Virus record (IMG/VR): IMGVR_UViG_2795385563_000001
Direction: 5' to 3' (one strand)
Source of the DNA: a virus
DNA: 64,000 nt
Numbering within the stretch: the first letter of the stretch is position 1; each line of letters opens with the position of its first letter. The translations under genes and the position numbers were made by a program. Below the pieces are notes generated by a model. The model did not search any database and was not told where the DNA came from. It was given only the letters and a program-made list of their open reading frames with translations. Of the stretch, positions 1,198 to 59,691 are shown piece by piece.

Positions 1198-1329
1198 GGC
1201 AGAAGTGTGTCAAGAGGTGATGCACAGACCACCCAAGCTGTGCAAGACACACCGTGGTTGCACGCCCCATGACGCCCGTTCTCGGCGTGTCCTACCTTTC
1301 AGGCGCCAATCCAAGGAACAACTTGGACG

Positions 1330-20694: not shown

Positions 20695-21513
20695 ATGTCC
20701 GCAGGTAAGCGCTCAATCCTGTCCGCCATCGCCACAGCCGCAGCCTTCATAGCCGTGGGTAGCGGCACCGCGTACGCAGATCCTGAATCCGACCAACCCA
20801 CAGACATCTCGGTGGTCGATCATGGTGCATCCGACTATGCAGAGCAACCGGCAACAGATTCGGTGTTCGAGCGGCACATGGTCGATGAGGAGTTCGCGCC
20901 CGGGCCCGTGGAAGCACCCGACGGGGAACCCACACCGGTGGAGGGAGATCCGCTGGTCGAAGAACCCGCACCAGAAGAAGACCCGGTCATCGTGGACGAC
21001 CCGATACCTGGTGCCGCGCCGTCACGTCCCCTGGTACTGGTACCCGAGGCCTCGACCAGGCCAGTCATCTCGGCTGCCGCCATCGACAAGTCCAACATCG
21101 TTTACACAGCGCACCCGGTGCCTCATGTCACCGATGCGGACATCTTCGCGGGGCTGCAGGCCGCCGGCGTAAATCCCGGGCTGTTCAGGCGATTCGACGC
21201 CGCGACACGCACCATCATGGGCGGCGAATCCGGCGGAGCGACCAACGCGGTCAACCGCAGGGACTCCAATGCGTGGGGCGCCCGACAGAGCGACGGCGCT
21301 CCTGCGGGAAGCTCGCGCGGCCTGATGCAGACGGTCCCAGGCACTTTCGCGGCAAATCACGCACCGGGTACTTCGACGTTCATCTATGACCCGGTCGCCA
21401 ACATCGCTGCGGCATGGCGCTATATCGCCGTGCGTTACCACGTCGACTTGCACACGGGTGCTGGACTGGTCACCTTCATGGCGCGCGGTGTCGGGCACGG
21501 AGTCGGGTATTGA
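20695..21513 (+). CDS. Secreted lytic transglycosylase (SLT domain) protein
   Basis: Signal peptide MSAGKRSILSAIATAAAFIAVGSGTAYA. Acidic Pro-rich linker. The C-terminal SLT core is GGESGG...SSRGLMQ. The start was moved to ATG 20695 after AGGAG. Confidence 0.6.
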   Translation: MSAGKRSILSAIATAAAFIAVGSGTAYADPESDQPTDISVVDHGASDYAEQPATDSVFERHMVDEEFAPGPVEAPDGEPTPVEGDPLVEEPAPEEDPVIVDDPIPGAAPSRPLVLVPEASTRPVISAAAIDKSNIVYTAHPVPHVTDADIFAGLQAAGVNPGLFRRFDAATRTIMGGESGGATNAVNRRDSNAWGARQSDGAPAGSSRGLMQTVPGTFAANHAPGTSTFIYDPVANIAAAWRYIAVRYHVDLHTGAGLVTFMARGVGHGVGY

Positions 21514-26797: not shown

Positions 26798-27116
26798 GGC
26801 TCCCTTGCTTGCTGAACGATCGGATGGGGTCGATACGAAAGGACGAAGCGCCTCCAGCGCGCATATAGGGATAGGTCAGCGGATGGACTGCGTACGTGGC
26901 TCCTACCGCGTTGAGGTCGGCCCATCTTGTCGCCTCTTCTGCCGAATCAAACGGACCAACGAACCGCGGAAGGAATGGTTTTCCCCACGTGATATCGAGG
27001 ACGTATTTCTCATCGCCTGCCACTGTCGCTCCTGTGCTGATTGGGCGTTCGCACCCCAAACGGGTCAAGTTCAGCTCGACTGACGTCGAATCATCTTCAT
27101 TTACACGGTCATCCAC
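26781..27116 (-). CDS. Hypothetical protein
   Basis: 111 aa, just downstream of polA. Confidence 0.35.
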   Translation of the reverse strand: MDDRVNEDDSTSVELNLTRLGCERPISTGATVAGDEKYVLDITWGKPFLPRFVGPFDSAEEATRWADLNAVGATYAVHPLTYPYMRAGGASSFRIDPIRSFSKQGSHDARI

Positions 27117-31437: not shown

Positions 31438-32568
31438 ATGTCCGCTCCCGTTCCCGCCCCCGCTCTCAGCGACGTCACCCATCCGCCGGCAGCAGCGGCA
31501 GCACCGGCTGTTGTCGTTCCCACGGTGACACAGATCGCACCCGTCGCTACGTCAACAGCCCCCACCGCACCCGGTGCACCCGCGGTTGCACCCGTTGCAC
31601 CCGTTGCGCCGGCCGCACCGCTGACCGCGGTGGCACCGGTTGTCCCTGCACCAGCCGCGGATGCCCCGGTTACCGCCTCCGAGCCTGTTCCAGTTCCCTC
31701 CCCAGCTGCGCCCGCGGTGACCTCGATGACCGTGGCTACAGCTGCGCCCGCGCCATCCACTTCGCCCATCGCGGGGATCGCACCGACCACACCGCCTCCG
31801 GTTGCGCCACCTGTGGCACCGCCCGTGGCGTCGGTTTCTGCCGTTGCGCCAGTCGCCCAGCTCGCAGCTGCCCCCACAGCTCCGGCTCCCGAACCTGTCT
31901 ACGCCCAGGGCGATGTCGTGGGCGCAGTAGCGGTGGCCCCGGTGGTCGCGCCCATTGTCGCGGCACCGGTCGCTGATCAAGCAGAGGCACAACCTGTCTC
32001 GGTTCCGGTATCGGCCAGCGTTCAGGCATTCGCCGCCAAACACAACATCGACCTAGCCACCGTGACGGGTACCGGAAGTCGTGGGCGTATCACCCGCAAG
32101 GACCTCGAAGCCATGGTGGCGGCTACCGTGGCCCTGGCCCCAGTGACACCCGCCGCGGTCGCCGCCGAAATCCCTGCGGCACCGGTGATCGACGCAGCTG
32201 CACCCCTCGTTGGGCCGCCGCCGGCCCCCGGCGTGTTCGGCGCACCTGACACCGGTGCTGCGGGTACACCGGTCGAGCATGCTGACACCGCCTCGATCAC
32301 AGCGCCGGTCGTGAGCGTGCCCGCTCCGGTTCCTGCAGCCCCGGCGGTTTCCGCGCCCGTCCAGCCAGTTAGCGACGGACTCAAGATCCGGGTACCGATC
32401 GACCTCAACGGCGGCCACAAGTTCGCGTTCGACGCCGAAACTGATCTGGCCGCATTGGCTCAGCGGGCTCTGCCTGCGCTCACGGTGCTCTCCGCGTTCA
32501 TCGAACTCACGGCCGAGGGCCCCGGACTCATTGCCACTGTGTCAGCGACGGCGGCGGTCAGTCTGTGA
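31438..32568 (+). CDS. Ala/Pro/Val-rich protein with a peripheral-subunit-binding (E3-binding) domain
   Basis: AFAAKHNIDLATVTGTGSRGRITRKDLEAMV matches the PSBD of 2-oxoacid dehydrogenase E2. It is flanked by (AP/VAP)n linkers. No lipoyl or catalytic domain. Confidence 0.5.
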   Translation: MSAPVPAPALSDVTHPPAAAAAPAVVVPTVTQIAPVATSTAPTAPGAPAVAPVAPVAPAAPLTAVAPVVPAPAADAPVTASEPVPVPSPAAPAVTSMTVATAAPAPSTSPIAGIAPTTPPPVAPPVAPPVASVSAVAPVAQLAAAPTAPAPEPVYAQGDVVGAVAVAPVVAPIVAAPVADQAEAQPVSVPVSASVQAFAAKHNIDLATVTGTGSRGRITRKDLEAMVAATVALAPVTPAAVAAEIPAAPVIDAAAPLVGPPPAPGVFGAPDTGAAGTPVEHADTASITAPVVSVPAPVPAAPAVSAPVQPVSDGLKIRVPIDLNGGHKFAFDAETDLAALAQRALPALTVLSAFIELTAEGPGLIATVSATAAVSL

Positions 32569-36139: not shown

Positions 36140-37135
36140 ATGTCGATGACACAAGAAGTGCGTGACGAAATGTGCCGCGCCACATCGATCCACCAAGGCT
36201 GCAGGCGCGCGCAAGTCGCGGCAATCGCGCGTCTGACCGGTGAGCTGCGTGTTTCTCGCACCGGCCTGATAGTGCATCTCGAAGTAAATACCGGCTCGGT
36301 CGCGCGGTACCTGCGCCGAGAGATCACGGCGCTGTACGGGCACAAAGTGAGCGTGACCGTCAACAATGAAACCGGTCTGCGTCGGGGCGCGCGCTACACC
36401 GTGCGCGTAACCGAAGGAGGCCGGGACCTGGCCCTGCAGATAGGTCTGATCGATCTACGCGGCCGACCGGTCACCGGACTACCCGCAATGGTGGTGGGTG
36501 GCTCACCGGGCGAAGTCGCCGCTGCCTGGCGCGGGGCCTTCATGGTCGCCGGATCGCTCATTGGACCGAGTCGTTCAAGCGCGCTGGAAATCAGTTGCCC
36601 CAGTCCAGAAGTGGCGTACGCACTCGCCAGCTGTGCCCGCCGCCTTGGTGTGCAGCCCATCGTGCGTACCGCTCGCGGTGTCGACCGAGTGACGATCCGC
36701 GACCACGACAACATCGGGGTGCTCCTGACCCGCCTCGGCGCCGAGGAGTCCCGGATATCCTGGGAGCGGCGCATCGCCCAGCGGGCAATGCAGGCAACGG
36801 CCATTCGCTTGGTCAATCTCGATGACGCCAATGCCCGACGCTCCGCGCGTGCAGCAGCCGCTACTGCTGCGAAAGTGGAGCAGGCGCTGGCGATCCTGGG
36901 CTCGGAGGCGCCGGAACACCTGGCGCATACCGGCCAGCTGCGTCTGGATCATCGAGAAGCCTCGTTGGAAGAACTGGGCCAGCTCGCACAACCGCCCATC
37001 ACCAAAGACGCCGTCGCAGGTCGGTTGCGCCGGCTGCTGACCATGGCTGATCGGCATGCCGCCGGTGAGGAGTTCGACGAGTTCGATCCGGAGCACCCTG
37101 CTGGTGAAACCGTCCGGCTCCTGGCGGGGGCGTAA
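36140..37135 (+). CDS. whiA: WhiA homologue (LAGLIDADG-like domains plus C-terminal HTH)
   Basis: Collinear and highly similar to M. tuberculosis WhiA over its full length: ...EITALYGHKV..., AWRGAFMVAGSLIGPSRSSALEISCPSPE, NLDDANARRSARAAAATAAKVEQALAILG, PPITKDAVAGRLRRLLTMADR. Confidence 0.8.
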   Translation: MSMTQEVRDEMCRATSIHQGCRRAQVAAIARLTGELRVSRTGLIVHLEVNTGSVARYLRREITALYGHKVSVTVNNETGLRRGARYTVRVTEGGRDLALQIGLIDLRGRPVTGLPAMVVGGSPGEVAAAWRGAFMVAGSLIGPSRSSALEISCPSPEVAYALASCARRLGVQPIVRTARGVDRVTIRDHDNIGVLLTRLGAEESRISWERRIAQRAMQATAIRLVNLDDANARRSARAAAATAAKVEQALAILGSEAPEHLAHTGQLRLDHREASLEELGQLAQPPITKDAVAGRLRRLLTMADRHAAGEEFDEFDPEHPAGETVRLLAGA

Positions 37136-44061: not shown

Positions 44062-44628
44062 TCAGGTCAGCTCCTGCGCTCCGGGGTACTCTCCCCTGCC
44101 TTCAACCTCCGGGTGCGGCTCTTTGGCGATCTGTGCTGCTGTGCGCAGACCCACCACCGAGTAGACGATGACAGACAACCCCCACAGGACCAGCATCGCG
44201 AGCCGGATTGGGTCGAGGTACTCGGGGCCAGGCGTTGGGATTATCAAGGCCAGTGCACCGACGGTGGCATACAGCGTCAACGCCAAACCGCGGGAGTTCC
44301 ACAGCCATTGCCGACTCGCGAGGAACGGACCAGCCAGAAGCCCGATACTGAATGCGAGTAAGAAAGCGCACCAGCCCAACACAGCCGAGAAATCATGAAT
44401 CATGTCGTAGTTCGACATACCGAAGCGGTCACACCCCACACGCCGCGGGTCATCGTACTCAAGTGCGCAGAGGTAGCCACTAGTTCGTGTCCGTACCAAC
44501 CAGCCCAGAGCGATGAGCAGTCCGGTCACCACGCTGAATACCATCGACGCGATGGCCAGGTTCGAAGCGTCGGGATCGCCTCCTTCGCCGCTGGATCCGC
44601 TTGGAACAATGATGGGAATCGGAATCAC
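44062..44628 (-). CDS. Polytopic membrane protein
   Basis: About 5 predicted TM helices. Confidence 0.45.
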   Translation of the reverse strand: MIPIPIIVPSGSSGEGGDPDASNLAIASMVFSVVTGLLIALGWLVRTRTSGYLCALEYDDPRRVGCDRFGMSNYDMIHDFSAVLGWCAFLLAFSIGLLAGPFLASRQWLWNSRGLALTLYATVGALALIIPTPGPEYLDPIRLAMLVLWGLSVIVYSVVGLRTAAQIAKEPHPEVEGRGEYPGAQELT

Positions 44629-45029
44629 TTCGACCTGCTTTCATGTGTGCTGTAAACGTATGGGCCAGCGCCAGAATCGACGATGACAGGTATTCCCGAG
44701 GCGTCCGCCCGCCTGACGCAGTCCCAGGTACCGCGAGAATCTGCGTCAGGAAAAGCAAGGCAGATGTCAGCGGCGAGGTCTACCATCTCTTGGTTTCGCA
44801 TGGGGCCCGCGGCTTTACCGTGTACTTGCCACGCCGCTGGATGGGGTTCGACTACGAACCCCATCCCGTCGGCGATCGCCGCGGCGATGATGTCTGCGCC
44901 CCCGTATGGGCATTCACCGTGGACAACGGTCACTTCGTGGGAGTTACGGCCAGCGGAAGCACTGCGCAAGGCGGTATCGATCCTGTCACGTTCTGTCCAG
45001 CGGCGGCTGCCGGTTATCAATATGCGCAT
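44625..45029 (-). CDS. SLOG-superfamily / DUF2493 (DprA-like Rossmann) protein
   Basis: MRILITGSRRW...VVHGECPYGGADIIAA...GPMRNQEM...GIPVIVDSG follows the DUF2493 pattern. Confidence 0.55.
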   Translation of the reverse strand: MRILITGSRRWTERDRIDTALRSASAGRNSHEVTVVHGECPYGGADIIAAAIADGMGFVVEPHPAAWQVHGKAAGPMRNQEMVDLAADICLAFPDADSRGTWDCVRRADASGIPVIVDSGAGPYVYSTHESRSK

Positions 45030-45328
45030 CAGCCCTCTCCTGCAATCTGTTTCGTAGAAACACTTTCACCTTCGTCCGGTTCGGACACCGCGCGGCATAG
45101 CAGCTCTTTGAACACGGAGTCCGCGACGCCGTCCAGAACCATTCGAACCACGAAATCAACGTCGCCGTGGTCGGCGCCGCAATTCTTCTTGTGGCACTCA
45201 GGAAACCGCCATTCCACAGCCGCGCGACTTAGCGCGGTGGCATAGATGGCCTGCTGGACGCGCGGCCACAGCGCCATATCACCAGTGGACGTGGTGACAG
45301 CCGTCACGCTCTCGGCGTCGCCAGTCAT
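45029..45328 (-). CDS. Hypothetical protein (start moved to internal ATG that overlaps the upstream stop)
   Basis: MTGDAESVTAV... ATGA junction with the 45325..45675 gene. Confidence 0.35.
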   Translation of the reverse strand: MTGDAESVTAVTTSTGDMALWPRVQQAIYATALSRAAVEWRFPECHKKNCGADHGDVDFVVRMVLDGVADSVFKELLCRAVSEPDEGESVSTKQIAGEG

Positions 45329-45675
45329 GCTGTATCTGCAGTGGTTTCGCACACCCTCACCACGCGACGAAGGCCACCGCGGGTCCGGTATTGCATCACA
45401 ACTTCGAACGTGAGGAAGAGGGCCACAACGAAAATCGCTGCCAGCGTTGGGAGAACGACACCGGTGAATGCCAGTAGAGCTGCTTCGATCGCAACGATGC
45501 CGGCCTGGCTGACCGCTCCGATCCGACGCCAACGCCGATAGTGCTGAGCTTCCGCATCACTACGAATCTGGGAGAGCATCAGCGTCGCACGTTCACGAGG
45601 CGTCAGCCGGAAAAATGATGCCGAGACGGTGCCGTCGACGTACGGCACCACGCGCGACCTCGCTCGGGCGCTCAC
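45325..45675 (-). CDS. Small membrane protein (2 TM)
   Basis: IVAIEAALLAFTGVVLPTLAAIFVVALFLTF. Confidence 0.35.
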   Translation of the reverse strand: MSARARSRVVPYVDGTVSASFFRLTPRERATLMLSQIRSDAEAQHYRRWRRIGAVSQAGIVAIEAALLAFTGVVLPTLAAIFVVALFLTFEVVMQYRTRGGLRRVVRVCETTADTA

Positions 45676-46025
45676 TTTTCGCCGCCTCCGATGGCGACCG
45701 GCTGCTTGTGGTCCCAGTCGCAGCTGCCGAAGACGCCGTTGACGTGGCTCCAGTGGGGGTCACCGTCATATGTGTGCTCGAAGCACAGCACCTTTTCCTT
45801 GCCGCCGGGCAGGAGCATCCAGTACGTGCTGAACCCGCCGTCGAGATTCGGCGTTCTAGTCTCGGGTGCAGGTGTCGGCGTGGACGTCGAAGACGTTGCA
45901 GTGGTTGGCTCGAACAGCCCGAGAATTGGACTTTGATCGCTGGCACTGCACGCCGCTGTGGACACGGCCACACCGCTGATGACAAGCGCGGCGGCCGCAA
46001 CGCGGACCATTCCCCGGCGGCTCAT
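45672..46025 (-). CDS. Putative lipoprotein
   Basis: Signal peptide ending ...AVSTAAC. Thr/Pro-rich linker. Confidence 0.45.
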   Translation of the reverse strand: MSRRGMVRVAAAALVISGVAVSTAACSASDQSPILGLFEPTTATSSTSTPTPAPETRTPNLDGGFSTYWMLLPGGKEKVLCFEHTYDGDPHWSHVNGVFGSCDWDHKQPVAIGGGEK

Positions 46026-46316
46026 TGCGCGTCTCCCGATCCGAACAGTGCGCCGAGATTGAGGTCGCGCTGGATGTGACCGCCCGAGATGGTGTCGCCG
46101 ATCAGCAGCGCCCCCGTCACGACAACTGCGATCAACGCGACATGCACCAATTTCCGCAAGATGCCGCTGACAGCGGTGATCACGGCCACGACTACGACCA
46201 CCGATGCGGCCGGCCAGTGATTCAAACCGGGGATCGCAGTCGTCGCAGTCCCTCCGACACCGGTCGTCAATGCCCCAGCCAGCGCGATGCGGCGAAGAGC
46301 TGCGTTTCTGAGCATG
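46022..46316 (-). CDS. Small membrane protein (start moved to ATG 46316)
   Basis: MLRNAALRRIALAGALTTGVGG... The longer call would translate operator motif 4. Confidence 0.4.
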
Positions 46317-46334
46317 CCCACGACTCCATTTCTT

Positions 46335-46351
46335 TTCTCTAAAATGGAGAA
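46335..46351. promoter_or_regulatory. Dyad operator motif copy 4 (TTCTCTA-AAA-TGGAGAA)
   Basis: 19 bp upstream of ATG 46316 on the minus strand. Confidence 0.5.
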
Positions 46352-46355
46352 TAGA

Positions 46356-46706
46356 TCAGCGACCGTGCACTGACAACACTCGATGTACGACACGCTGAAT
46401 CCGCGTAGAGGGCTGAGATGTCGCGGATGTCGCAGAGAGGACTGTCATGTCCCCGAGAAGTTGAGTGGCCCGCTGCCGCAGCTCGCGCGCCTCACCGCGT
46501 TCGCCGTTACGTTCCAGCCTGTCGGCCTTGGCCAAGAGGACGTCAGCGGCTATCCGGTCGGGCGTCCTCGTTGCGGGGTCGGTATGCCAACGGCCAACGG
46601 ACACAGCGGCAACACACCTTTCTGCCCGCGCAACTGGAGCCCGGGGCAATGAGATCACGGACCACTGACATGGTTGAAGCCGGAGACCGGGTGTTGTCGC
46701 ACCCAC
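46356..46706 (-). CDS. Hypothetical protein
   Basis: 116-aa ORF. Weak. Confidence 0.3.
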   Translation of the reverse strand: MGATTPGLRLQPCQWSVISLPRAPVARAERCVAAVSVGRWHTDPATRTPDRIAADVLLAKADRLERNGERGEARELRQRATQLLGDMTVLSATSATSQPSTRIQRVVHRVLSVHGR

Positions 46707-48564: not shown

Positions 48565-49020
48565 TCAGCCGAACAGAACCAGCGTCACGACCACCGGCGA
48601 AGCCTCCGCAACCTCCCGAATGATCTGCTCGGCCACTGCGGGATCCAGACCGCCGATACCGCCGCCGATAAGTGGTAGCGCGACAGAACCGATCCCCTGC
48701 TTATGCGCCAGGTCTAGCCCCTGAGTCAGAGATGCGCGCAGCCACTGCTCGGTCGCATCGGGACCCGGCTGATTCTGACTCGCACAGTGGATGATGGGGC
48801 GACCCAGCCCGGCGTCACGGCCTTTGTTACGGGTGAACACAGCCGAGCCGGGCGTGATCCGCCCCTGCTGCGCAAGGATGACGTACTGAGTCATCGCGTC
48901 GGGATAGCGGTCCGCCATCACCGAGGCCAGGCCCCCGGTGACGCCCTGGCAATTCACTCCGTGCGCCAATGCCTCAGCTGGATGGGCGAACAAGTCGCCG
49001 GTCTCGACGGTGAAGCTCAT
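48565..49020 (-). CDS. Macro domain protein (ADP-ribose binding/processing)
   Basis: VETGDLFAHPAEALAHGVNCQGVTGGLASVM...GSVALPLIGGGIGGLDP matches the macrodomain fold. Confidence 0.7.
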   Translation of the reverse strand: MSFTVETGDLFAHPAEALAHGVNCQGVTGGLASVMADRYPDAMTQYVILAQQGRITPGSAVFTRNKGRDAGLGRPIIHCASQNQPGPDATEQWLRASLTQGLDLAHKQGIGSVALPLIGGGIGGLDPAVAEQIIREVAEASPVVVTLVLFG

Positions 49021-50086
49021 CGATGCCTCCTCAGACTCGATCCGAATGGGGGACGCGACGGATTGTCCTGTACGTCCCCCAACTGCCAGGGTTCAATGGC
49101 ACGGGCCCGGCTCAGTCTTGCGAGCTTGCCGAGCAGTAGGTCCGACATCTTGTCGCCCTGAACTTCGGCGTCACAGTCACCTTGGGCATCTACGGGAACG
49201 GGATACCTTCTGTCGATGTGGAAGCCCACCATTGGGGTTGGATACTGATCCGACGGCAACTTGCGCAGCATTTTTCCGTACGGTCGGCCAGCAGGTATGT
49301 GAGCGGCGTCGTCAGTCCCTATCAGCGCGCGTGAGTGCTCAGGTCTGTTGACCCTCAGTGAGAACCTGAATCCCAGCAGAGCATCCAGCCCTTCAAGCAT
49401 CGGCTCGGAGAAGTGTTCACCGGCCAGAAGCAGGTGCACTCCGGCCGAGGCCCCGTCTCGTGCGATGTCCATGAGCCGGTTTCGCTTCTCTGGATTCTCC
49501 TGTAGGACCCAGCAGAAATTGTCGATGACCGCTACCAGATCTGGTAGCGGCGGACAATTACCGTCAACAGCGCGTGCACAGCGTTCGCGCCGGTATTCGG
49601 CACTGCTCCGGCAGTGTTTGGACGCGAGAAAGTCCTCTCGACGCCGGATCTCAGCTGTGAGAACAGCCAACGTCCAGTCAATGGTCTCTTCGGGTTTGTC
49701 ATGACCTGACACGTTTGCGACCGTGTGGGGCAACGCCTCGAATCCTCGGAACGTCGCGGTCCCCATCCCGTCAGCCAAGAACAGCGAAAGCCGATCCGGC
49801 CCATACCTGGTCGCGAGCGACAAGACCATCGACCGCAGGAAGTAACTTCTTCCCGCCCCGGTCCGCCCCTGCACGGCGCCGCTGGTTCCGTCACGCGAAA
49901 AGTCCAGGGTGCTCAGCTCTGGGATCAGCGCGTCGCCGACACGCAGATAACCTGTTGGTATCGCGACTGAGTCAGCGTGAGCGTTCCGCGCCCATGCCGC
50001 CGCGGGGTTGTAGGTTTCGATGTCGTCGATACCGAGCACGTCGAAGAAGTCCGGAATCTTGCCGTCACTGTCTGCACCGATGGCGC

Positions 50087-50090
<4 letters not shown>
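49017..50090 (-). CDS. Stand-alone FtsK/SpoIIIE ATPase domain, close paralogue of EccC ATPase domain 1, with Walker A Lys replaced by Arg
   Basis: DFFDVLGIDDIETYN...GAVQGRTGAGRSYFLRSMVLSLATRYGPDRLSLFLADGMGTATF versus EccC DFFEVLEIGDIETHD...GAVAGRTGSGKSYFLRAVVLALIAMYGPDKVALILADFKGGATF. Walker B VAVIDNF. Confidence 0.7.
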
Positions 50091-50905
<815 letters not shown>

Positions 50906-51524: not shown

Positions 51525-52301
51525 ATGGGCTCGCTGAAATCTCTTCCGGGAAACGACAAGCTGCTGGGTCAGCTCCTGCAGACGCTGCTTGTGCTGGCTG
51601 CTGTGGCGGTCATTGTGGTCTTGATCGTCAACGGCACCTTGTTGGGCAAGGACAGCCGGATATCATCCGTGCTCAGCAAAATCACCGGTCAAGAACAAAG
51701 CGATGAAGTAGCGCCATCGGGCTCAACGACGGCAAGCGGCAGCGGAACTCCCAGTCCTGATCCATCGACGCTGACCGTCGCTGCGCCCGGATCCAAGAAT
51801 GGCTATGCACGCGCACGGTTCGGACAACCATGGACTGACGACGTCGACGTAGAAGGCGGCCATAACGGGTGCGGCACGCGTGATGACATCCTGCAGCGTG
51901 ACCTCACCGGCATAACCCTTTCCGGCTCATGCAAAGTCATGTCCGGAACGCTTGCCGACCCGTACACCGGACAGATCATGTCGTTCGTCTACGGCAAGAA
52001 GACATCAGCTCTCGTCCAGATCGATCACCTAGTGAGCCTGTCAAATTCTTGGGTCTCTGGTGCCTCGACATGGGACTTGTCCGAACTCAAGAAGATCGCG
52101 AACGACCCGTTGAATTTACTTGCCGTCAACGGGTCTTCCAATGAAAGCAAGGGCGAGAAGTCTGCCGATCAGTGGCTTCCGGAGAACACCGCGTTCGACT
52201 GCACCTATGTCAAGCGACAGGTGATGGTCAAGAACAAGTACAGGCTCACCGTGACCGCCGCTGAGAAAGCCACGATGCAGCAATTCTACGGCGCCTGCTG
52301 A
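51525..52301 (+). CDS. Membrane-anchored/secreted HNH-type nuclease-like protein (DUF1524-like)
   Basis: N-terminal TM helix, Ser/Thr/Pro linker, then GHNGCGTRDD...IDHLVSLSNSW...NLLAVNGSSNESKG (His/Asn/Asn HNH-like). Confidence 0.5.
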   Translation: MGSLKSLPGNDKLLGQLLQTLLVLAAVAVIVVLIVNGTLLGKDSRISSVLSKITGQEQSDEVAPSGSTTASGSGTPSPDPSTLTVAAPGSKNGYARARFGQPWTDDVDVEGGHNGCGTRDDILQRDLTGITLSGSCKVMSGTLADPYTGQIMSFVYGKKTSALVQIDHLVSLSNSWVSGASTWDLSELKKIANDPLNLLAVNGSSNESKGEKSADQWLPENTAFDCTYVKRQVMVKNKYRLTVTAAEKATMQQFYGAC

Positions 52302-52357
52302 CAACGGGCTCGTGCCTGATGCGTCAGCCCGGCGAAGCCGCCTCTACGGTGCGCGGC

Positions 52358-53089
52358 ATGTCTATCGTTCGTACATGCATGGCCGCAGTTGTTTTCGTTG
52401 CGTCCCTATGCCTTCTGGCTGCCGGATGCGACCATTCGGACATGGCGCAATCACCGGTCCCATCCACTGTCACCGAACCCGACGGCGTGTCGCGCGGAGC
52501 CGACGCAACGTTGCTGATGAACGATGCAGTCTCAGCGGCCCGGGCAACACCATCCGCGCGCCTGCTGTTCTCCAGCACCAATGTCGCCGACCTGTTGGCG
52601 AAGGCATACGCCGCTGACGTGACCGTCACTCCCGCTATCGCAGCGCGCGGAAACGCCACCTTGAAGATCAACGGCGACTACACCCAGGCTCAGTTCCGCA
52701 CCGGCGAGGGAACCTTGTGGGTTCAGGGATCTGACGGCGCATTCGTGAAGGTTGGACGTGCGCGCGGCACACTCGATCCCGCCGCGCTGCTCGATCCTGC
52801 GCGAGGGATCGCAGGTCTGCTTGCCGCTGTGGATTCTCCCGTGATCGAAGAGCCGCATGCTTTCGCGGGTTCGGATGCGGCGATCAAAGTTACGGGGACC
52901 CTGCCTTCGCCGTCTGCCAGTGCCTTGATTCCAAAATCATCGCTCGGGGACGCCAAGGAACTTCCCGCGGCCCTGTGGTTGGCGCCGCAATCACCGCACC
53001 AGTTGATGCAGCTGACCATCGCGGTCGGTGACGGATCGCTTGCGCTCAGAGTTGAAAAGGGCGAGCCGTTCACTATTCCCGTGCAGTAG
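52358..53089 (+). CDS. Lipoprotein (lipobox LAAGC)
   Basis: MSIVRTCMAAVVFVASLCLLAAGC. The start was moved to ATG 52358. Confidence 0.5.
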   Translation: MSIVRTCMAAVVFVASLCLLAAGCDHSDMAQSPVPSTVTEPDGVSRGADATLLMNDAVSAARATPSARLLFSSTNVADLLAKAYAADVTVTPAIAARGNATLKINGDYTQAQFRTGEGTLWVQGSDGAFVKVGRARGTLDPAALLDPARGIAGLLAAVDSPVIEEPHAFAGSDAAIKVTGTLPSPSASALIPKSSLGDAKELPAALWLAPQSPHQLMQLTIAVGDGSLALRVEKGEPFTIPVQ

Positions 53090-53181: not shown

Positions 53182-56100
53182 CTATGCAGACTGCCGAAGC
53201 GCCTGCCGCTCTTGCTGCAATTTCCTGTCCACCGCGTCGACATCGATCCGCGCGGTCTGCACCATTGCATAGTCGTCCGCATCTACGATGATTCGGCCCT
53301 GTCCAGGACGCCAGCGCATCGGCTTGAGGTGGTAAGCCTGGCCGATTGGATCGCCGGATGACGGTGGGCTAGCCAGCTGCAGGATGGGAGCCATCATGTT
53401 CTCCCGCAGCGCCATCAGGAACTCGGCCGACTTCACCTTGCTGGCGAACCCGCTGTTGTCCGAGACGATGAAGTGCACGCCGAGGTCTGTTCCGGAAGCG
53501 AGCAATTCACTAATCGTCACCCCGCCATACCGCACCTCGTCGAACACCGACTTCGACGAGTAGCCCTTGGCCAGGTTGGAGAAGTTGTCGACGAACACGT
53601 AAACCTCGGGTCCAGTGAAGAAGGTCCGGGACTTGAGCTCATCGGCAGTGGCGTCGTCGGTGGGGCGACGAGATCCCATTAGCTTGACCAACATCTCCGC
53701 CGTTTCGGCGATATCTTCGGCACTGGTGACATATCCCGGTGGACGCATCCGCTCCCGCACCATCGCACCGTCGCGCTCCACCTCTTGGAACTTGGCGGGC
53801 CTGACGAATCCGCGGGCATACAGGCGATCTCGCTCCCCCAGGTGCTGGCGAAGCGGGTCGATCACGATGATGATGGCGTCCTTCGGGGTGAACTGACGCA
53901 TCACCGACTCCATGAAGCTGCGCATCAGATTGCTCTTGCCGGCGCCCTTCTCGCTGTACACAAGCAGGTTTTGTGAGAAGTTCGGCATCGGCGCCAGGTC
54001 CAAAGTGTCCATGCGGACACCCAGCGGGATGATCGTGTGCATGGGATGCCGGTGAGGATCGCTCAGTGGCGCGAACGTCGACCACATGTGCTCGTAGTCG
54101 ATGACCGGATCGGCGGGCAGAACCTTGGGAACTCTCTGATCGGCTAGCTCGGCGTCAAGATAGGTGCACAGTTCTCGGATCTCTTCGCCGTAATCGTGAA
54201 TCTTGAAGTCCTTCATACCTCCCACGTACCCGTCCTCTTCGATCTCTCGGAAGATGGGCACCGCGGTGCGCGCCTGCAACATCGTGAACGGATCGAATGA
54301 ACGGCCAGGCTGATCCACCGGGATACGCTCGCTCAAGGTGAAGCGCACCTCGGACGAGACTTTCGCCCCACCGTAGTCCGTAGAAGGGAGCTGTACACCG
54401 CCGTTGACCTCCGCGGTGTAGTGAGTCACGTTGCCCGCGTTTCCTGATCCGCCTGAGTCAGCGGTGTAGACCAGGTGCACGCCCACCGCGGCGCCCTTGT
54501 CGAGGATTGGGCGCAACAGTTGCGCACGGTCGGCGCGCTCGTCCTTCTCGCCCAGGAATCCTCCGATGCCGTCAATAGCCACGATCACGTACCCGTAGGG
54601 GTCGCCTTCGACGGGGACAGCGGACTCACCAGACTTGGACGCCAGGTACGCGTCCACCGACGAAGCTTGGCGATCCACCATTTCGCGACGACGTAGGTCG
54701 ATCAGGCGGGAGGCCTCACCGAGAATGCGCGCTGTGGTCTCGTCGTCCTCCGGTCGCGCATAGGCCGCAACGTTCGGGCTGTCCTTGACTTCTCCGAGCT
54801 TGCCGGTGCCGTAGTCGACCAGCATGAACGCAAGCCGCGCCGGTCCGTGCTGGAGGCATCCGCAGATGACCAGCGTCTGTAGCAGGGTCGTGCGCCCCGA
54901 CTTGCCAGCGCCCGCGATCACCTGGTGTGGCAGGTTTCCGCCGAAATCCACGAACCAGGGCAACCGCGTGTGCTTTTCGGGTGCATCGAGGTCACCGACC
55001 CTGATCCTGATCCCGCGCTCTTCACGAGTCAGGTCCAACGTGGGCAATGACAGCGGCTCACGTAGCGATGGTTTCCACAGATCCAGGGTGCGCATTTTTG
55101 ACAGACGCGAGGCCTTTTCCAAGAGAACATCGGCCATCTTCTCGCCGAGCTCCTCCTCGGTGACCTCAACGTTATCTTCCTTTACCTCGGGTTTGAATTC
55201 CCCGGTGGCGAAGAACGTGAACGGAACTACCGTCTCCGCGACTGGTCCGGATCCGTCCGCATGCACACGAGATCGCTCGGTCACCGTGCGCCTGACGTAC
55301 GGCGCCTCGTGATGGAACGCCGCTACTTCAACAGGCTTGGCGTCAGTGGTGAACTTGCGCAAGATCTTTCCCTTGAGCCCGCCCTTCTTGCCCACCATCG
55401 TCGCCGCGTCGTCTGTGCCCAGCATCGCGACGGAATAGCTCGTGCTGTTGACCGCCAACGAGTAGCGGAAGGTCAAGTGCTCGAACAGATCACCGATGAC
55501 ATCCTTGTTGATGAACTGGCTGCACATGACCAGGTGCATACCCAGCGAGCGGCCCACGCGCCCGACGCGGATCAGCATCTCCAGATAGCCCGGGCGGCCT
55601 TTGAGGAATTCGCCGAACTCGTCGATGATCACGATCAGGTCAGGAAGCGGAGGCCAGTTCGGATCGTTCGGGTGCTTCTTCTGCTGCTCCCGGTAGTCGA
55701 AGATGTCCTTGCAGCCCTTTTCGGTGGTGATGAACTCCTCCCGGCGGTCCACCTCTCCGTTGATGACCGCGCCTAGGCGATCGACGAGTTCCATCGTGTT
55801 CTCGAGGTTGGAGATAGACGCCACGACGTGCGGCAGCTTGTCCATCCCCAGGAACGTCGCGCCGCCCTTGAAGTCAGCAAGAATGAGCGCGACCTTGTCC
55901 GGTCCATACATCGCGATGAGCGCCAGGACTACCGCGCGCAGGAAGTAGGACTTACCGGAACCGGTTCGGCCCGCCACCGCTCCGTGCGGACCGTTTCCGT
56001 CTCGGTTCTCTTCGTAGAAGTTCAGGTATGTCAGCTCGGGGGTGAGCTCATCGCCCTTGCGGTAGTAGCCAAACGGCACCTTGATCTCGTCGGTGTAGGC

Positions 56101-57465
56101 GTTGCGCTTCCACACCTCGATCAGGTCGTGCGTCTCGATGTCGCCGATCTCGAGCACTTCGAAGAAGTCCGGGATGTGGTCGGGACGATCGTCGACCACT
56201 TCGCCGCCGACGCCGTAGTTGCGCGGCCGCCATTTGTACATGGTCTGGGCGAAGACTGCGGCCTCGGCGATCGTCGCTGAGTCGGCAGCCGCAGCGTCGT
56301 AATTATCGACAGTCGAGACGCGGCCGTCCTTGAGAAGGATGCGACTCTTCATCTCGACGGGGTCGGTAACCAGATCTTGGCCGCAGCGCACCACGAACCA
56401 GGTCATGCCCTTGACACCGCCCGCGATGTTCGCCGGCCAGGACACCATCGCATCGGGGGTATCGATGATCAGAATAAGATGCGGGGGCCGGTTGTCGCTG
56501 TCCTCGTTGCGCATGCGCTCGATCTGCGCGGCGTGCTTGACCGCGAATTCATCGATGCTGCGCCATGTCAGAAGCCGTGCGCCCAGCCCCTTTTCAACAC
56601 GGGTCACGTCCTCGGCATGTGGCAGCCACTTCACCCATTCCCAAGTCTCGGGGTCATCGGTCACCACGCCGACGTTCAGATCGCTGGGCCGGTGGTTGAA
56701 CGCCAGCGACATCAGCATGGCCCGTACGAGCCCCAGGCGCCCCTGCTCATCTCCGCGCATCGCGTAGGCGGGAAACTCGTCGAGGCGTACGTCGAGCGGT
56801 AGGTTGGCGACTACCGACAGCGTGTCCATCGCGCGCCCGTAACGCACCATAGTCGCCGGTTCCTGCATCTCCGGCACCACATCTGGCGCCTGTATGAGTT
56901 TCGGAAACAGCGGCGCCACACCGATTCCGACACGAGCCCGCAGATATGGGTTCGAGGTCAGATTTTTGACGTCGGGGTCCGACTCCTGGTCCGCCTGAAC
57001 TACGCGACCGATTTCGGGGTTGGAATCGGCCTGCCACATTTCGTGAGAGCCGATCAGGGAAAGAAGATCAGCCGGGTGCGGGAAGCATTGGGTTCGCAGG
57101 TCATGCATGGCCTGCCCCTGCTCGTAGATTTCAAAACGCTGCTCACGCAGTTCCAGGTCGTATTCCTCTATGTCCTGGTCGATGTCGCCACCGCTGTTGC
57201 CCTGGCTGCGCATCTGCGCGATGTACATCAGCGGCATCATCAGCATGATCGGCATCGTGGTGAGCATCGTTGTGATGGCGCGTTGTCCGGTGACCAGCGA
57301 CATGACAACCATGCCGACCATGAGGCCCACCATCATCAATGGCATGAAGCGGAGCCAGATCGGGCGCTTGTCCGGCGCCGGCAGGCCTAGCGGCTCTTTG
57401 AGTTGTACACCGGTGGGCGACAACTGAACTGATTCGCGCGGGGGAACCCGGAAAACAGTGAACAT
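53182..57465 (-). CDS. eccC: EccC-like type VII secretion FtsK/SpoIIIE ATPase (TM segments, DUF domain, three P-loop domains)
   Basis: 1427 aa. N-terminal RFMPLMMVGLMVGMVVMSL...MLMMPLMYIAQM...HPADLLSLIGSHEMW...VKWLPHAEDV is collinear with M. tuberculosis EccCa1. P-loops GRTGSGKSY, GAGKSGRTT and GAGKSNLM. ATG preceded by AAGGAAGGA. Confidence 0.85.
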   Translation of the reverse strand: MFTVFRVPPRESVQLSPTGVQLKEPLGLPAPDKRPIWLRFMPLMMVGLMVGMVVMSLVTGQRAITTMLTTMPIMLMMPLMYIAQMRSQGNSGGDIDQDIEEYDLELREQRFEIYEQGQAMHDLRTQCFPHPADLLSLIGSHEMWQADSNPEIGRVVQADQESDPDVKNLTSNPYLRARVGIGVAPLFPKLIQAPDVVPEMQEPATMVRYGRAMDTLSVVANLPLDVRLDEFPAYAMRGDEQGRLGLVRAMLMSLAFNHRPSDLNVGVVTDDPETWEWVKWLPHAEDVTRVEKGLGARLLTWRSIDEFAVKHAAQIERMRNEDSDNRPPHLILIIDTPDAMVSWPANIAGGVKGMTWFVVRCGQDLVTDPVEMKSRILLKDGRVSTVDNYDAAAADSATIAEAAVFAQTMYKWRPRNYGVGGEVVDDRPDHIPDFFEVLEIGDIETHDLIEVWKRNAYTDEIKVPFGYYRKGDELTPELTYLNFYEENRDGNGPHGAVAGRTGSGKSYFLRAVVLALIAMYGPDKVALILADFKGGATFLGMDKLPHVVASISNLENTMELVDRLGAVINGEVDRREEFITTEKGCKDIFDYREQQKKHPNDPNWPPLPDLIVIIDEFGEFLKGRPGYLEMLIRVGRVGRSLGMHLVMCSQFINKDVIGDLFEHLTFRYSLAVNSTSYSVAMLGTDDAATMVGKKGGLKGKILRKFTTDAKPVEVAAFHHEAPYVRRTVTERSRVHADGSGPVAETVVPFTFFATGEFKPEVKEDNVEVTEEELGEKMADVLLEKASRLSKMRTLDLWKPSLREPLSLPTLDLTREERGIRIRVGDLDAPEKHTRLPWFVDFGGNLPHQVIAGAGKSGRTTLLQTLVICGCLQHGPARLAFMLVDYGTGKLGEVKDSPNVAAYARPEDDETTARILGEASRLIDLRRREMVDRQASSVDAYLASKSGESAVPVEGDPYGYVIVAIDGIGGFLGEKDERADRAQLLRPILDKGAAVGVHLVYTADSGGSGNAGNVTHYTAEVNGGVQLPSTDYGGAKVSSEVRFTLSERIPVDQPGRSFDPFTMLQARTAVPIFREIEEDGYVGGMKDFKIHDYGEEIRELCTYLDAELADQRVPKVLPADPVIDYEHMWSTFAPLSDPHRHPMHTIIPLGVRMDTLDLAPMPNFSQNLLVYSEKGAGKSNLMRSFMESVMRQFTPKDAIIIVIDPLRQHLGERDRLYARGFVRPAKFQEVERDGAMVRERMRPPGYVTSAEDIAETAEMLVKLMGSRRPTDDATADELKSRTFFTGPEVYVFVDNFSNLAKGYSSKSVFDEVRYGGVTISELLASGTDLGVHFIVSDNSGFASKVKSAEFLMALRENMMAPILQLASPPSSGDPIGQAYHLKPMRWRPGQGRIIVDADDYAMVQTARIDVDAVDRKLQQERQALRQSA

Positions 57466-57485
57466 TGCAGTTCCTTCCTTGGTAG

Positions 57486-59366
57486 TCAGCGACCGACGGT
57501 CGAGGCGTCGTTGGTGGCCTGCGCCCGATCTGCGGTGTCCGAGCTTGAGCTAGCCGCAGGGTCCGGGGTAGTGGCATCAGGCGCAGGCGCCTCTCCCTCT
57601 TCCTCGGGGACCGGCGCGGGCGGAGGTTGTCCTTGCGTCGTTGGCGGGTTCGGTACCTGCGATGCGGGGTTGATGGTTCCCTGCATGACTTGTGCGTTCT
57701 TGATCGACAACGTCGCTCCAGGTGCGTACAACTTGGCGACCGCCGCGGGGATGGGTGTCGGCGAAATCGAGTCGAAACCAAGGGCTTTGACAGTTGGGTC
57801 GTAGGACACCGCGCCGTTGCGGGCAATCACCACGTCAATCGGAAACCGGGTTCCATTGGGATCGATCCACAGCAGTTGCTCGGCGGCCACCGAATCTGTG
57901 CTGTCACCGGTCGTTCGGGCATACCATCCGTACCCGGGGCGGGTGATCGAATCAGTTGCCTGGTCGGTAGACCCGTTGTTGGGCAGTAGATGTACGGCGG
58001 CAACGCGTCCGGACTCAGTGACCGGCATCCGAGAATTAGTGAAGATGCGAGTGTGCGCTGTGAGCTCACCAGCGGACTTGGTCCAGCTCCAGCACAGCGC
58101 GGGCTCACTGACCAGCGTCGGCACCTGCGTGGGAAACCGTGAGTCGTCGACGATCCCCACCCGAGGCATCGCCTGCACCGAGGCAGGGTCGTCGACGAGC
58201 TTCTGCGCCGCCCCGGTGTTGATCATCATCTGCGCCAGTACGGGACTGACCTGTTGCACTCCTCCAGAACCAACCAAATAGAAGGCCCGTGAGCCCGATG
58301 CCGTAGCCACCGTGAGCACGTCGCCGATGGCGGAGCCGTTCACCGTTGGGCTGGGCTGCCCTTGGTTAACGAGCCTGGGCGCGGTGAGCACGGGCGACGG
58401 CGCAATCGTTGCGAGCAGCGAAGGTGAGACAGTCACTGCGGTCTCGATAAGCGACGGTGTCAGTCCGAGAGCGGCCTGCGCGGCATAGTCCCCACGCCCA
58501 ACTTCAGCTCGTGTGTCGCGATACAGCAGCCACAACCTGGTCGGATCGCTGGCAGGTTTGACCAGCACCGCTCGGTTGCTTCCCAGATCGGTTCCGCCAT
58601 CAAGCATGTCGTCTCCGGCAATCACAGCGGTGGTGATGTCGCCGGTCTTAAGAAGCGACAGCGGCACCGCTGTGTCGCGCCAGTCGCAGACGGTCCACAC
58701 AGCTGACTCGTCAGTGCGCGGGGACAACAGATTGGGCGCACTGGGAATACCCATCAGGGGCCCGGTGGGTAGTGAACGCAGCGCCGTGTCGGTGGCGACC
58801 TTGGCTTCTTCTGGCGTGCCGACAATCAGACGAGCCGAGGCCAGGTTGGTCACCGGGTGCAGGCGGCCGTTGAACTGAACGAATATGCCGCCGGAGCGGG
58901 TTGTCATGATCGCGGCGACGCCCGAATCGGGCTTCGGGTTGATCAACGAGACAACGAATGCCGCTACGAGAACAAGTACGCCGCCTACGAGGCTGATCGA
59001 CAAGGATCCACGCAGACGCGTAAGGGGCGATCCAACGCCACGCACATCCTGACGGGACAATGCCTCGTCGATGCGATTGAGTTCGCGCTTATACCCCTTG
59101 ATCTGGCGAGTGGTGGTCAAAAACCACGGCACTGCCCCATCGGCGCGGTTGGGCTCACGTTTGCGCCCCTCGGACTGTTGGTCGTTGCTCAAATTCCCAG
59201 ACACCGCAACTCCTTGCTCGCCAAGCCGACCGGCCGGCTGGCCGTGTTCGATGCGTGGGGAGAGTGGCAAAATCTCGCGGATACACAGCTCTGGGGCGCG
59301 AGGAGACGTCAGCGCCAACCGCGCCGATCTGCGAACGTGGTGTATTCTCCGTTTTAGAGAACTCAT
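57486..59366 (-). CDS. eccB: EccB-like type VII secretion membrane component
   Basis: FLTTTRQIKGYKRELNRIDEA ... single TM ... GRLHPVTNLASARLIVGTPEEAKVATDTALRSLPTGPLMGIPSAP...AVWTVCDW ... PALCWSW are collinear with EccB1. The true start is probably GTG near 59132; the called N-terminal 78 aa are doubtful. Ends 20 nt before the eccC start. Confidence 0.8.
   Translation of the reverse strand: MSSLKRRIHHVRRSARLALTSPRAPELCIREILPLSPRIEHGQPAGRLGEQGVAVSGNLSNDQQSEGRKREPNRADGAVPWFLTTTRQIKGYKRELNRIDEALSRQDVRGVGSPLTRLRGSLSISLVGGVLVLVAAFVVSLINPKPDSGVAAIMTTRSGGIFVQFNGRLHPVTNLASARLIVGTPEEAKVATDTALRSLPTGPLMGIPSAPNLLSPRTDESAVWTVCDWRDTAVPLSLLKTGDITTAVIAGDDMLDGGTDLGSNRAVLVKPASDPTRLWLLYRDTRAEVGRGDYAAQAALGLTPSLIETAVTVSPSLLATIAPSPVLTAPRLVNQGQPSPTVNGSAIGDVLTVATASGSRAFYLVGSGGVQQVSPVLAQMMINTGAAQKLVDDPASVQAMPRVGIVDDSRFPTQVPTLVSEPALCWSWTKSAGELTAHTRIFTNSRMPVTESGRVAAVHLLPNNGSTDQATDSITRPGYGWYARTTGDSTDSVAAEQLLWIDPNGTRFPIDVVIARNGAVSYDPTVKALGFDSISPTPIPAAVAKLYAPGATLSIKNAQVMQGTINPASQVPNPPTTQGQPPPAPVPEEEGEAPAPDATTPDPAASSSSDTADRAQATNDASTVGR
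59345..59361. promoter_or_regulatory. Dyad operator motif copy 5 (TTCTCCG-TTT-TAGAGAA)
   Basis: 30 bp upstream of XRE gene ATG 59392, in the divergent region toward eccB. Confidence 0.55.
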
Positions 59367-59391: not shown

Positions 59392-59691
59392 ATGCGCACC
59401 GATCCCGCCCAGGCCAAGTCGCCTGGCGGCCTCTTCGTGCTCACCGATACAGCCATCGGCACGGCCATCCGCATCCGCCGTGGCGGTTTGCAGCAGGGAG
59501 AAGTCGCCAAACGTGCAGGCATCAACCTCAGCGTGTTCTCGCGCATCGAACGCGGGGAGCGGCCATGCCGCGTCTCTGAAATGGTGAGTATCGCCAAAGC
59601 ACTCAACACACCTGAAGACGAGATGCTCAAGTTGATCAGGGATCAAGTAGCCGCAGAGGGTTCCGCCGAGAAAACTCAGGGCAAGCGATGA
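59392..59691 (+). CDS. XRE-family HTH regulator (candidate repressor of the dyad motif)
   Basis: QQGEVAKRAGINLSVFSRIERGERPCRVSEMVSIAKAL. Paralogue of 62940..63215. Confidence 0.6.
   Translation: MRTDPAQAKSPGGLFVLTDTAIGTAIRIRRGGLQQGEVAKRAGINLSVFSRIERGERPCRVSEMVSIAKALNTPEDEMLKLIRDQVAAEGSAEKTQGKR

Follow-up and report, generated by a model that had tools for sequence, protein, structure and literature searches.

Can a type VII secretion system work with EccB and EccC as its only recognisable membrane components? A 64,000-nucleotide stretch of DNA (the window), catalogued as IMG/VR virus record IMGVR_UViG_2795385563_000001, raises this question. A first-pass annotation, made from the sequence alone, had noticed adjacent genes for EccB and EccC in it, on an integrase-bearing mobile element with neither EccD nor a mycosin in view. 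Exact copies of window proteins occur in Mycobacteroides abscessus assemblies. Our best reading, put forward tentatively, is that eccB-eccC would encode the membrane part of a streamlined, functional secretion module related to the ESX-P5 class of plasmid-borne systems, carried on an integrative element of more than 78 kb. Gene content, predicted folds and conservation suggest that the module has a function. The features on which the argument draws are collected in Table 1.

Table 1 Features of the window, with positions counted from its first nucleotide
Feature	Position	Strand	Description
Left end of element	1-1602		tyrosine integrase 1-1197 (-); HTH_17 excisionase 1330-1602 (+)
EccC-D1-like FtsK domain fused to EccA-type AAA module with lid (chimera)	15770-17767	+	predicted cytosolic chimera; P-loop GRTGSGKS
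Chymotrypsin-like S1 serine protease	19671-20495	-	predicted secreted; intact TAGHC and GDSGAP motifs
SLT-type lytic transglycosylase	20695-21513	+	predicted secreted; Pfam SLT 24.7 bits; signal-like N-terminus
Candidate substrate	21551-23803	+	750 aa; elongated helical N-domain (putatively PPE-like), Ala/Pro/Gln low-complexity linkers, conserved C-terminal domain
EspG-fold chaperone (predicted)	23842-25215	+	457 aa; EspG-like domain at about residues 145-457, after a disordered/helical N-terminal extension
Family A DNA polymerase	27101-29896		931 aa; 3'-5' exonuclease domain; conserved in Tsukamurella element
WhiA-like protein	36140-37135		all three WhiA domains; conserved in Tsukamurella element
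Stand-alone EccC-D1 copy	49017-50090	-	357 aa; Walker A GAGRS, Walker B VIDN
Acidic-tailed protein	50087-50905	-	272 aa; most conserved eccC neighbour; translationally coupled to D1 copy
GmrSD_C/DUF1524 nuclease	51525-52301	+	membrane-anchored or secreted; convergent on eccC; strongly hydrophobic N-terminus
LppX/LprAFG-type lipoprotein	52319-53089	+	convergent on eccC
EccC-like motor/pore protein	53182-57465	-	1427 aa; 2 N-terminal transmembrane helices, DUF-like region, 3 FtsK-type ATPase domains
EccB	57486-59204	-	572 aa; one transmembrane helix, periplasmic repeat domain, Pro/Ala-rich C-terminal tail
XRE-type helix-turn-helix regulator	59392-59691	+	99 aa; divergent from eccB; Pfam HTH_31/HTH_3

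The identity of the two proteins comes first. The first-pass annotation took them for true EccB and EccC rather than generic FtsK proteins, and Pfam, NCBIfam and alignments to solved structures agree on this point; the motifs quoted for both were all found in the translations. The two N-terminal transmembrane (TM) helices of the EccC product, both Met/Pro-rich, and its three FtsK-like ATPase domains are those expected of an EccC of the ESX (T7SSa) type. Pfam recognises three FtsK_SpoIIIE stretches (166.8 bits), the MLMMPLM, HPADLLSLIG and KWLPH blocks are present, and residues 8-1004 can be aligned with EccC5 in the solved structure of the ESX-5 complex (345 bits). Its scores lie below the NCBIfam equivalog cutoffs, marginally so for TIGR03924 EccCa (501 bits, cutoff 509) and also for TIGR03925 EccCb (302 bits, cutoff 346.55). 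The FtsK model gives only 30 bits, and the plasmid_TraB model (NF041214) 15 bits against a cutoff of 800, which sets the protein apart from TraB-type translocases. The three P-loops reported earlier stand as three ATPase stretches, but only the first domain, D1, is canonical, with complete Walker A and Walker B motifs (GRTGSGKS, IIDE); the Walker Lys is replaced by Arg in D2, and the catalytic Glu is missing from D2 and D3. From these comparisons we identify the product as a full-length, true EccC.

EccB is matched end to end by Pfam PF05108 (320.6 bits), and its score of 303.8 bits against TIGR03919 (cutoff 154) places it within the EccB family. It aligns along its whole length with the solved structures of EccB5, where the score is best (169 bits), EccB3 (146) and EccB1 (89), and the LTTTRQIKG, GRLHPVTNLASARL, AVWTVCD and PALCWSW blocks are present; by all these measures it is a bona fide EccB. 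The assignment made earlier thus stands, though not its start. The open reading frame (ORF) is open to 59366, and the likely start is the GTG at 59204, since it is preceded by an AAGGAG Shine-Dalgarno sequence and is the one used by public gene calls. The 20 nt that were said to separate the eccB stop from the eccC start are confirmed.

The case for a reduced system depends on what is missing. In Pfam searches of essentially all called window ORFs (the final scan, listed completely, covered 51 ORFs and matched 17 families), no EccD/YukD, EccE, Peptidase_S8, WXG100, PE, PPE, VirB4, TcpC or relaxase was found. All proteins encoded by the complete ESX-P5 locus on plasmid pCBMA213_1 also served as tblastn queries against the window, the collinear element of Tsukamurella and eleven sister loci. 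Matches were obtained for EccB, EccC, the AAA part of EccA, EspG and the lytic transglycosylase, and weakly for an 827-residue protein; none of the targets contained a match for EccD, MycP or EccE, or a homologue of hyp894, hyp697 or AAA577, which lie between eccC and eccD on pCBMA213_1. By comparison with the ESX-P5 description, we take hyp894 to be the VirB4-like gene. A protein of the EccD type, with about 11 TM segments and a ubiquitin-like domain, was found by neither Pfam nor tblastn; none of the six-frame window ORFs has more than five TM segments in a hydropathy scan, and we found no multi-TM substitute for EccD conserved in the element. No subtilisin-like (S8) mycosin was detected in the window by Peptidase_S8 or tblastn, the sole protease being the S1 enzyme of Table 1, and EccE was absent from window and sister loci in both types of search. 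On these counts, as on the absence of PE/PPE from the window, the first-pass annotation was right.

An ordinary complete esx locus with its remaining genes just outside the window, which ends only 4.6 kb upstream of eccB, would explain these absences trivially, and we now find it barely credible. In ESX-P5 loci, eccD-mycP-eccE lie downstream of eccC; here EccD, MycP and EccE are absent from the 53 kb downstream of eccC as well as from the 4.6 kb upstream of eccB. The next ~14 kb of sister M. abscessus elements, which take the view to ~19 kb right of eccB overall, lack them too, and are occupied by a transfer RNA (tRNA) array and small ORFs; the check for these genes immediately right of the window, on which the earlier claim of an unusual locus hung, thus came out negative. 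A compact esx locus of less than 30 kb is refuted by the same 53 kb downstream and ~19 kb upstream. The three proteins are also absent within 10 kb on either side of eccB in eight other species, and no EccD, EccE or mycosin is annotated over 143 kb of the collinear Tsukamurella element. WXG100, PE and PPE families likewise turned up neither in the ~19 kb right of eccB in sister elements nor among the Tsukamurella annotations.

What remains of the system is conserved. EccB proteins of at least 51% identity form a clade drawn from M. abscessus, Mycolicibacterium, Mycobacterium spp., Mycolicibacillus, Gordonia and Tsukamurella. ESX-P5-type loci (pCBMA213_1, Mycobacterium avium complex plasmids, pMYCSM02 and Rhodococcus plasmids) come next, with 36-44% identity, and the EccB proteins of pRAW and of chromosomal types follow at ~30% or less. 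The eccB-eccC pairing is kept in eight species at 60-80% amino-acid identity, and all eight genome loci continue from eccB-eccC with the LppX-type lipoprotein, the GmrSD_C nuclease, the 272-residue protein and a Macro gene. Where the contig extends far enough, a tRNA array or a transfer-messenger RNA (tmRNA) gene precedes the pair. The EccC ORFs of the eight species are uninterrupted (1417-1468 codons); the Walker A and B motifs of their D1 do not vary, the Pro/Met motif of the second TM helix (TMH2) is conserved, and the pattern of an intact D1 with degenerate D2 and D3 is kept throughout. Ratios of nonsynonymous to synonymous substitution (dN/dS) between species, for which synonymous sites are near saturation, are 0.15-0.31 for EccC and 0.09-0.14 for EccB, the latter range leaving out the comparison with locus L013, an artefact of mis-framed extraction. 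These ratios indicate that the pair is under purifying selection in at least eight species.

This record bears on whether the genes are an evolutionary remnant, the non-functional leftovers of an ESX-P5-type locus after the loss of EccD, MycP, EccE and VirB4. Such an origin would suit several observations: the nearest relatives are complete ESX-P5 loci, the two clusters of parts are separated by 30 kb, degeneration has affected several nucleotide-binding sites, and the Tsukamurella eccC record is split into two ORFs. Because the EccC ORFs are intact, the pairing is kept in eight species, dN/dS is far below 1 and the catalytic D1 motifs are invariant, and with the operon, its Shine-Dalgarno sequence and the divergent regulator likewise conserved among relatives, we consider a remnant very improbable.

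ESX-P5 type VII/IV loci have been described on giant mycobacterial plasmids, namely linear M. avium plasmids of the pS2b type, pCBMA213_1 and pMYCSM02 (Yano et al., DNA Res 2026, PMC12803027), and they are the closest known systems to the one described here. Their EccC is the closest match and their EccB proteins share 37-40% identity with that of the element (~30% for other ESX-P and chromosomal types); they have a homologous EccA AAA module, EspG, SLT and a counterpart (827 residues) of the 750-residue protein, and the plasmids likewise bear tRNA array units and no relaxase. The differences lie in completeness and layout. An ESX-P5 system forms one contiguous locus with full EccA, including its TPR domain, EccD, MycP, EccE, VirB4-like and VirB8/TcpC-like proteins and PE/PPE pairs. 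In the element, EccD, MycP, EccE, the VirB genes and PE/PPE are missing, the rest is found in two clusters, and the carrier is integrated and has another backbone. Thus, the element does not hold the contiguous set of VirB4-like, VirB8/TcpC-like and complete Ecc genes that characterises ESX-P5. With the chromosomal ESX-1 to ESX-5 systems it has in common that its EccB and EccC align along their whole length with EccB5 and EccC5, that the pore-lining Pro/Met residues of TMH2 are conserved and that no ATPase site other than that of D1 is fully canonical; it differs from them in having no EccD, EccE, MycP or WXG100 pair, an S1 instead of a subtilisin-like protease, and an EccC that lies just under the NCBIfam equivalog cutoffs.

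The description as a two-gene core holds for the eccB-eccC operon and falls short for the element, which adds a second, accessory cluster comprising a predicted EspG-fold chaperone, the EccA-like/D1 chimera, an SLT enzyme and a candidate PPE-like protein. The 457-residue protein is matched by pCBMA213_1 EspG in tblastn (E=5e-26); the plasmid protein passes Pfam PF14011, while the 457-residue protein itself falls short of it. Its AlphaFold (AF2) model has a pLDDT of 80.8, and values exceed 90 for most of residues 140-457; the top 18 hits of a Foldseek search of the PDB were all EspG5, EspG3 or EspG1 structures (probability 1.0, E 1e-11 to 4e-7). The model thus identifies it as an EspG-fold protein. 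Structure prediction was the sole source of this fold; sequence-profile searches of the PDB with alignments of the EspG-like and the 750-residue proteins returned nothing. Genes for the EspG-like protein and EccB co-occur in D16Q14 (equal-size contigs, 169256), M. aubagnense, M. koreense and Tsukamurella. The gene for the 750-residue protein, a candidate PPE-like substrate, directly precedes the EspG-like gene and lies beside those for the SLT enzyme and S1 protease; the 827-residue pCBMA213_1 protein that gave the weak match to the element is itself encoded next to SLT. The SLT enzyme also matches the lytic transglycosylase of pCBMA213_1 in tblastn. The S1 protease scores 41 bits, under the cutoff, with the NCBIfam Rv1815-family model, and in Tsukamurella its homologue carries the annotation S1 peptidase.

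The first-pass annotation had also pointed to extra FtsK-like ATPases, and two genes of EccC-D1 type answer to this, only one of them with a P-loop that is not degenerate. The chimera has no TPR domain, no TM helix and no T7SS_EccA1_N domain; its AAA half matches TIGR03922 at profile positions 275-557 only (183 bits, cutoff 467) and is 37% identical to the AAA part of pCBMA213_1 EccA, and the protein scores 125 bits with TIGR03924. The 357-residue D1 copy matches positions 396-647 of TIGR03924 (179 bits). In Tsukamurella, the two form a single 1006-residue protein, relative to which the arrangement in the window is split and relocated. The ESX-P5 loci of pCBMA213_1 and of an M. avium complex plasmid have homologues of the chimera and of SLT on their flanks.

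How might such a set of parts work? In ESX-5, the central pore is formed by TMH1 and TMH2 of EccC, interlocked with the TM helix of EccB (PMC8232910). Because of this architecture, the two proteins retained on the element are the very ones behind the pore, the periplasmic dome and the motor. In the mechanism we propose, a hexamer of EccC together with EccB would form a reduced translocon. The EspG-like chaperone would hold the PPE-like 750-residue protein, and possibly other element proteins, and the cytosolic ATPases of EccA/D1 type would deliver or activate the substrate at the cytosolic face of EccC. Exported proteins and wall hydrolases would then remodel the envelope. The most likely purpose, by analogy, would be to spread the element from cell to cell or to establish it, since related plasmid ESX-P systems are required for conjugation (pRAW, PMC4173767).

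EccD and EccE make up most of the membrane mass of ESX machines, and the contribution of the scaffold proteins and of the mycosin is still debated. A stricter proposal is that EccB and EccC alone suffice in the membrane for a translocon, which receives its cargo from an EspG-type chaperone and EccA/EccC-D1-type ATPases, and that a whole family of giant, tRNA-array-bearing integrative elements in Mycobacteriales relies on it to export a PPE-like envelope protein for their own spread; we regard it as doubtful but worth stating.

Several points weigh against a streamlined functional module. No WXG100 protein (PF06013) was found among the small ORFs at E<=0.01, a search that a very divergent WXG protein could escape, and the PE and PPE families were not detectable by sequence in the window with Pfam. 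The accessory cluster lies ~30 kb from eccB-eccC on the same element, and its functional tie to them is suggested by shared ancestry and co-occurrence only. Among the accessory ATPases, the AAA Walker B of the chimera lacks its Glu (LLDN) and the nucleotide site of the 357-residue D1 copy is degenerate. The visible M. abscessus sequence ends ~19 kb right of eccB, and further parts may lie beyond. To our knowledge, EccD is present in every characterised ESX machine. The EccD of ESX-5 is peripheral, yet it contacts the N-terminus of EccB as well as EccC (PMC8232910), so that a scaffold is normally needed.

This last observation, with the lack of a conserved multi-TM substitute in the element, would fit a hybrid machine, in which element EccB and EccC, with the chaperone and ATPases, plug into the EccD, EccE and MycP of the host's ESX-3 or ESX-4 and redirect the translocon to element cargo. 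M. abscessus encodes ESX-3 and ESX-4 (PMC11791044). The element EccB is ~27-30% identical to EccB proteins outside the ESX-P5 type, so conservation of the required interfaces is unlikely, and the same reduced set occurs in hosts with differing chromosomal ESX repertoires (Mycolicibacterium, Mycolicibacillus, Tsukamurella and Gordonia). We know of no subunit interchange between paralogous ESX systems, which also counts against a hybrid. We judge it unlikely.

A further possibility is that EccC and the FtsK-type ATPases pump DNA, moving the excised double-stranded element in the manner of TraB while SLT opens the wall. An integrase and excisionase are present without a relaxase, and three EccC-D1/FtsK-type ATPase genes accompany the SLT gene. 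Relaxase-less ESX-P5 giant plasmids have been proposed to be conjugative, possibly transferring without rolling-circle replication (PMC12803027), and eccC of ESX-P1 is essential for conjugation of pRAW (Ummels et al. 2014, PMC4173767). pRAW resembles the present element in carrying a type VII system on a mobile element; it differs in having a relaxase, VirB4, VirD4, TcpC and a complete ESX-P1 system beside its type IV secretion-like genes, and its EccB is ~30% identical. Actinomycete integrative and conjugative elements of the pSAM2 type, which use TraB, resemble the element in having int and xis, in inserting at a tRNA gene and in encoding FtsK-family ATPases. The ATPases of the element are of EccC type, a family of protein translocases, and the low TraB and FtsK scores given above set its EccC apart. 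The element is also ~10 times larger than a typical member of that class. VirB4, TcpC and VirD4 were not found in the window with Pfam or tblastn, and the region after the ATPase domain of the 357-residue copy resembles, on reading the translations, the linker that follows D1 in EccC, without sign of a gamma or winged helix-turn-helix domain. Two of the three extra nucleotide-binding sites are degenerate. Finally, EspG- and EccA-type accessories handle substrate proteins, and their presence leads us to favour protein secretion over DNA pumping. A DNA-transfer apparatus thus seems rather improbable to us.

The carrier itself is integrated in the host chromosome. Position 1 of the window is the 3' end of the integrase gene, in keeping with the integrase-bearing element noticed earlier; 140 bp further left lies a tRNA-Arg(CCG) gene (locus L030, 7027-7100), and beyond it argS-lysA-hom-thrC-thrB-rho, part of the core chromosome. 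Integrase and excisionase genes at a tRNA-gene boundary beside core genes are the layout of an integrative element. Because of this arrangement, we interpret the window as the leftmost 64 kb of an element that has inserted at a tRNA gene, with tRNA-Arg(CCG) its probable attachment site. When the attL/tRNA-Arg region was compared with the available sequence, all matches were tRNA-like and due to chance; attR was not found there, and therefore the element exceeds ~78 kb. The tRNA array begins ~180 bp right of the window (from ~64176). In complete sister genomes it comprises 36 tRNAs over ~11.6 kb with an HNH_5 gene inside (L028, 5538-17104); short-read contigs break within it, as in L005, where 14 tRNAs (12221-16497) run up to the contig end. 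Some strains have an IS110 inside the array, and beyond it are small ORFs, an XRE gene and, in one strain, RtcB. The HNH gene of the same tRNA-array element type was found on 281 recorded contigs; because of this, we regard the carrier type as widespread. That the element is an integrated pCBMA213_1-like plasmid was considered and rejected, as only type VII secretion parts, RNase H and a polymerase fragment are common to the first 124 kb.

Is the carrier instead a very large temperate phage, or a phage-like element, with EccB and EccC serving exclusion, release or effector export from lysogens? Some of its content would suit one: the family A polymerase and WhiA-like protein of Table 1, a superfamily 2 helicase, RNase H, methylase, NT5C and Macro genes, the HNH gene in the 36-tRNA array, and RtcB; an SPFH protein is also encoded. 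Two ORFs match PHROG families of unknown function, and tRNA arrays occur in mycobacteriophages too (PMC5966550). No terminase, portal, capsid or tail gene was found in the 64 kb plus ~14 kb, and the annotation of the 143-kb Tsukamurella relative includes none. PHROGs returned nothing for ten large unknown window ORFs and ten large Tsukamurella ORFs, nucleotides 45-64 kb matched none of 50,697 phage records, and an IMG/VR scan with EccB gave one spurious 19-residue match and no relative. Against plasmids, the same 45-64 kb had a single match, Tsukamurella eccC at 74%. A phage carrier therefore appears quite improbable.

A separate observation concerns the records named 'Mycobacterium phage Adler' (KC960489.1 and KF981876.1; L004), of 95.7 kb and flagged UNVERIFIED_ORG, which encode EccB-like (24.6% identity), EccC-like and EccA-like proteins and seem to represent an ESX-P plasmid instead of a phage. 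Within the window, gene calls conflict at 31438-32568, where a public 376-residue plus-strand ORF opposes minus-strand ORFs at 31552-32043 and 32053-32418, both of which have higher third-position GC (0.82 and 0.79).

The Tsukamurella relative is a collinear element of more than 143 kb in T. tyrosinosolvens NZ_LR134455.1 (L001, L015-L018). Although labelled 'plasmid 13', this record is a chromosomal contig, as its cob genes, uvrA, lnt and rbpA show, and the integrated element runs from its integrase (120870-122210) through the contig end. A DUF87/HerA-like ATPase gene directly follows eccC, here annotated as two overlapping ORFs, and the element further contains cysS, two RNA ligases, Thg1, tmRNA and an adenylosuccinate-synthetase-like gene beside a NUDIX gene. 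Its tmRNA gene (L016, 8012-8438) and another (L014, 1102-1524) in a metagenome-assembled genome labelled Leucobacter have near-identical tag peptides, ANDNESLVSDADL... and ANDNDSLVSDADL...; the Leucobacter assignment looks doubtful, the EccB of that genome being 76% identical to the M. abscessus protein.

The surroundings of eccB-eccC bear out part of what had been described. The divergent XRE gene exists, and tblastn finds it beside eccB in relatives too, but a clear dyad operator was not confirmed; the 187-bp region between the eccB GTG and the XRE gene holds just a weak GC-rich palindrome at 59225-59244. On the other side, the nuclease and lipoprotein genes that converge on eccC are kept as a pair from Mycobacteroides to Tsukamurella. 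The 272-residue protein is 77-84% identical in loci L007-L012 and 63% in Tsukamurella, and family searches gave no match for it. In the same minus-strand gene string as this protein and the D1 copy, 44062-46393 holds small membrane- or lipoprotein-like ORFs of 116 (two TM segments), 117 (a lipobox-like AAC), 123 (TM) and 188 residues (four to five TM segments), of which the 116- and 123-residue ORFs are conserved in Tsukamurella; these small membrane proteins could be partners of EccB and EccC.

In the literature searched, we found no paper describing an element-borne EccB-EccC system without EccD, or tying one to a tRNA-array element; databases annotate the genes as EccB and FtsK/SpoIIIE. Published surveys call an ESX locus only where EccB has EccD, EccA or a set of four or more core genes close by, and because of this they would miss an eccB-eccC element. 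A survey of mycobacterial tRNA array units reported that the sequences flanking the arrays share no features (Morgado and Vicente 2018, PMC5966550). The element described here shares with those units its 36-tRNA array and a set of species (M. abscessus, M. canariasense, M. austroafricanum and M. koreense), and differs in an eccB-eccC neighbour and an int/tRNA-Arg boundary that are undescribed in the literature searched. The sequence comparison identifies it as a carrier of a mycobacterial tRNA array unit, and these units can thus be tied to a defined integrative element with a probable tRNA-Arg attachment site. The system resides in a clinically important species, Mycobacteroides abscessus. 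As a natural, conserved lineage under selection that keeps the proteins of the pore, the periplasmic dome and the motor, it offers a test case for the minimal requirements of type VII secretion.

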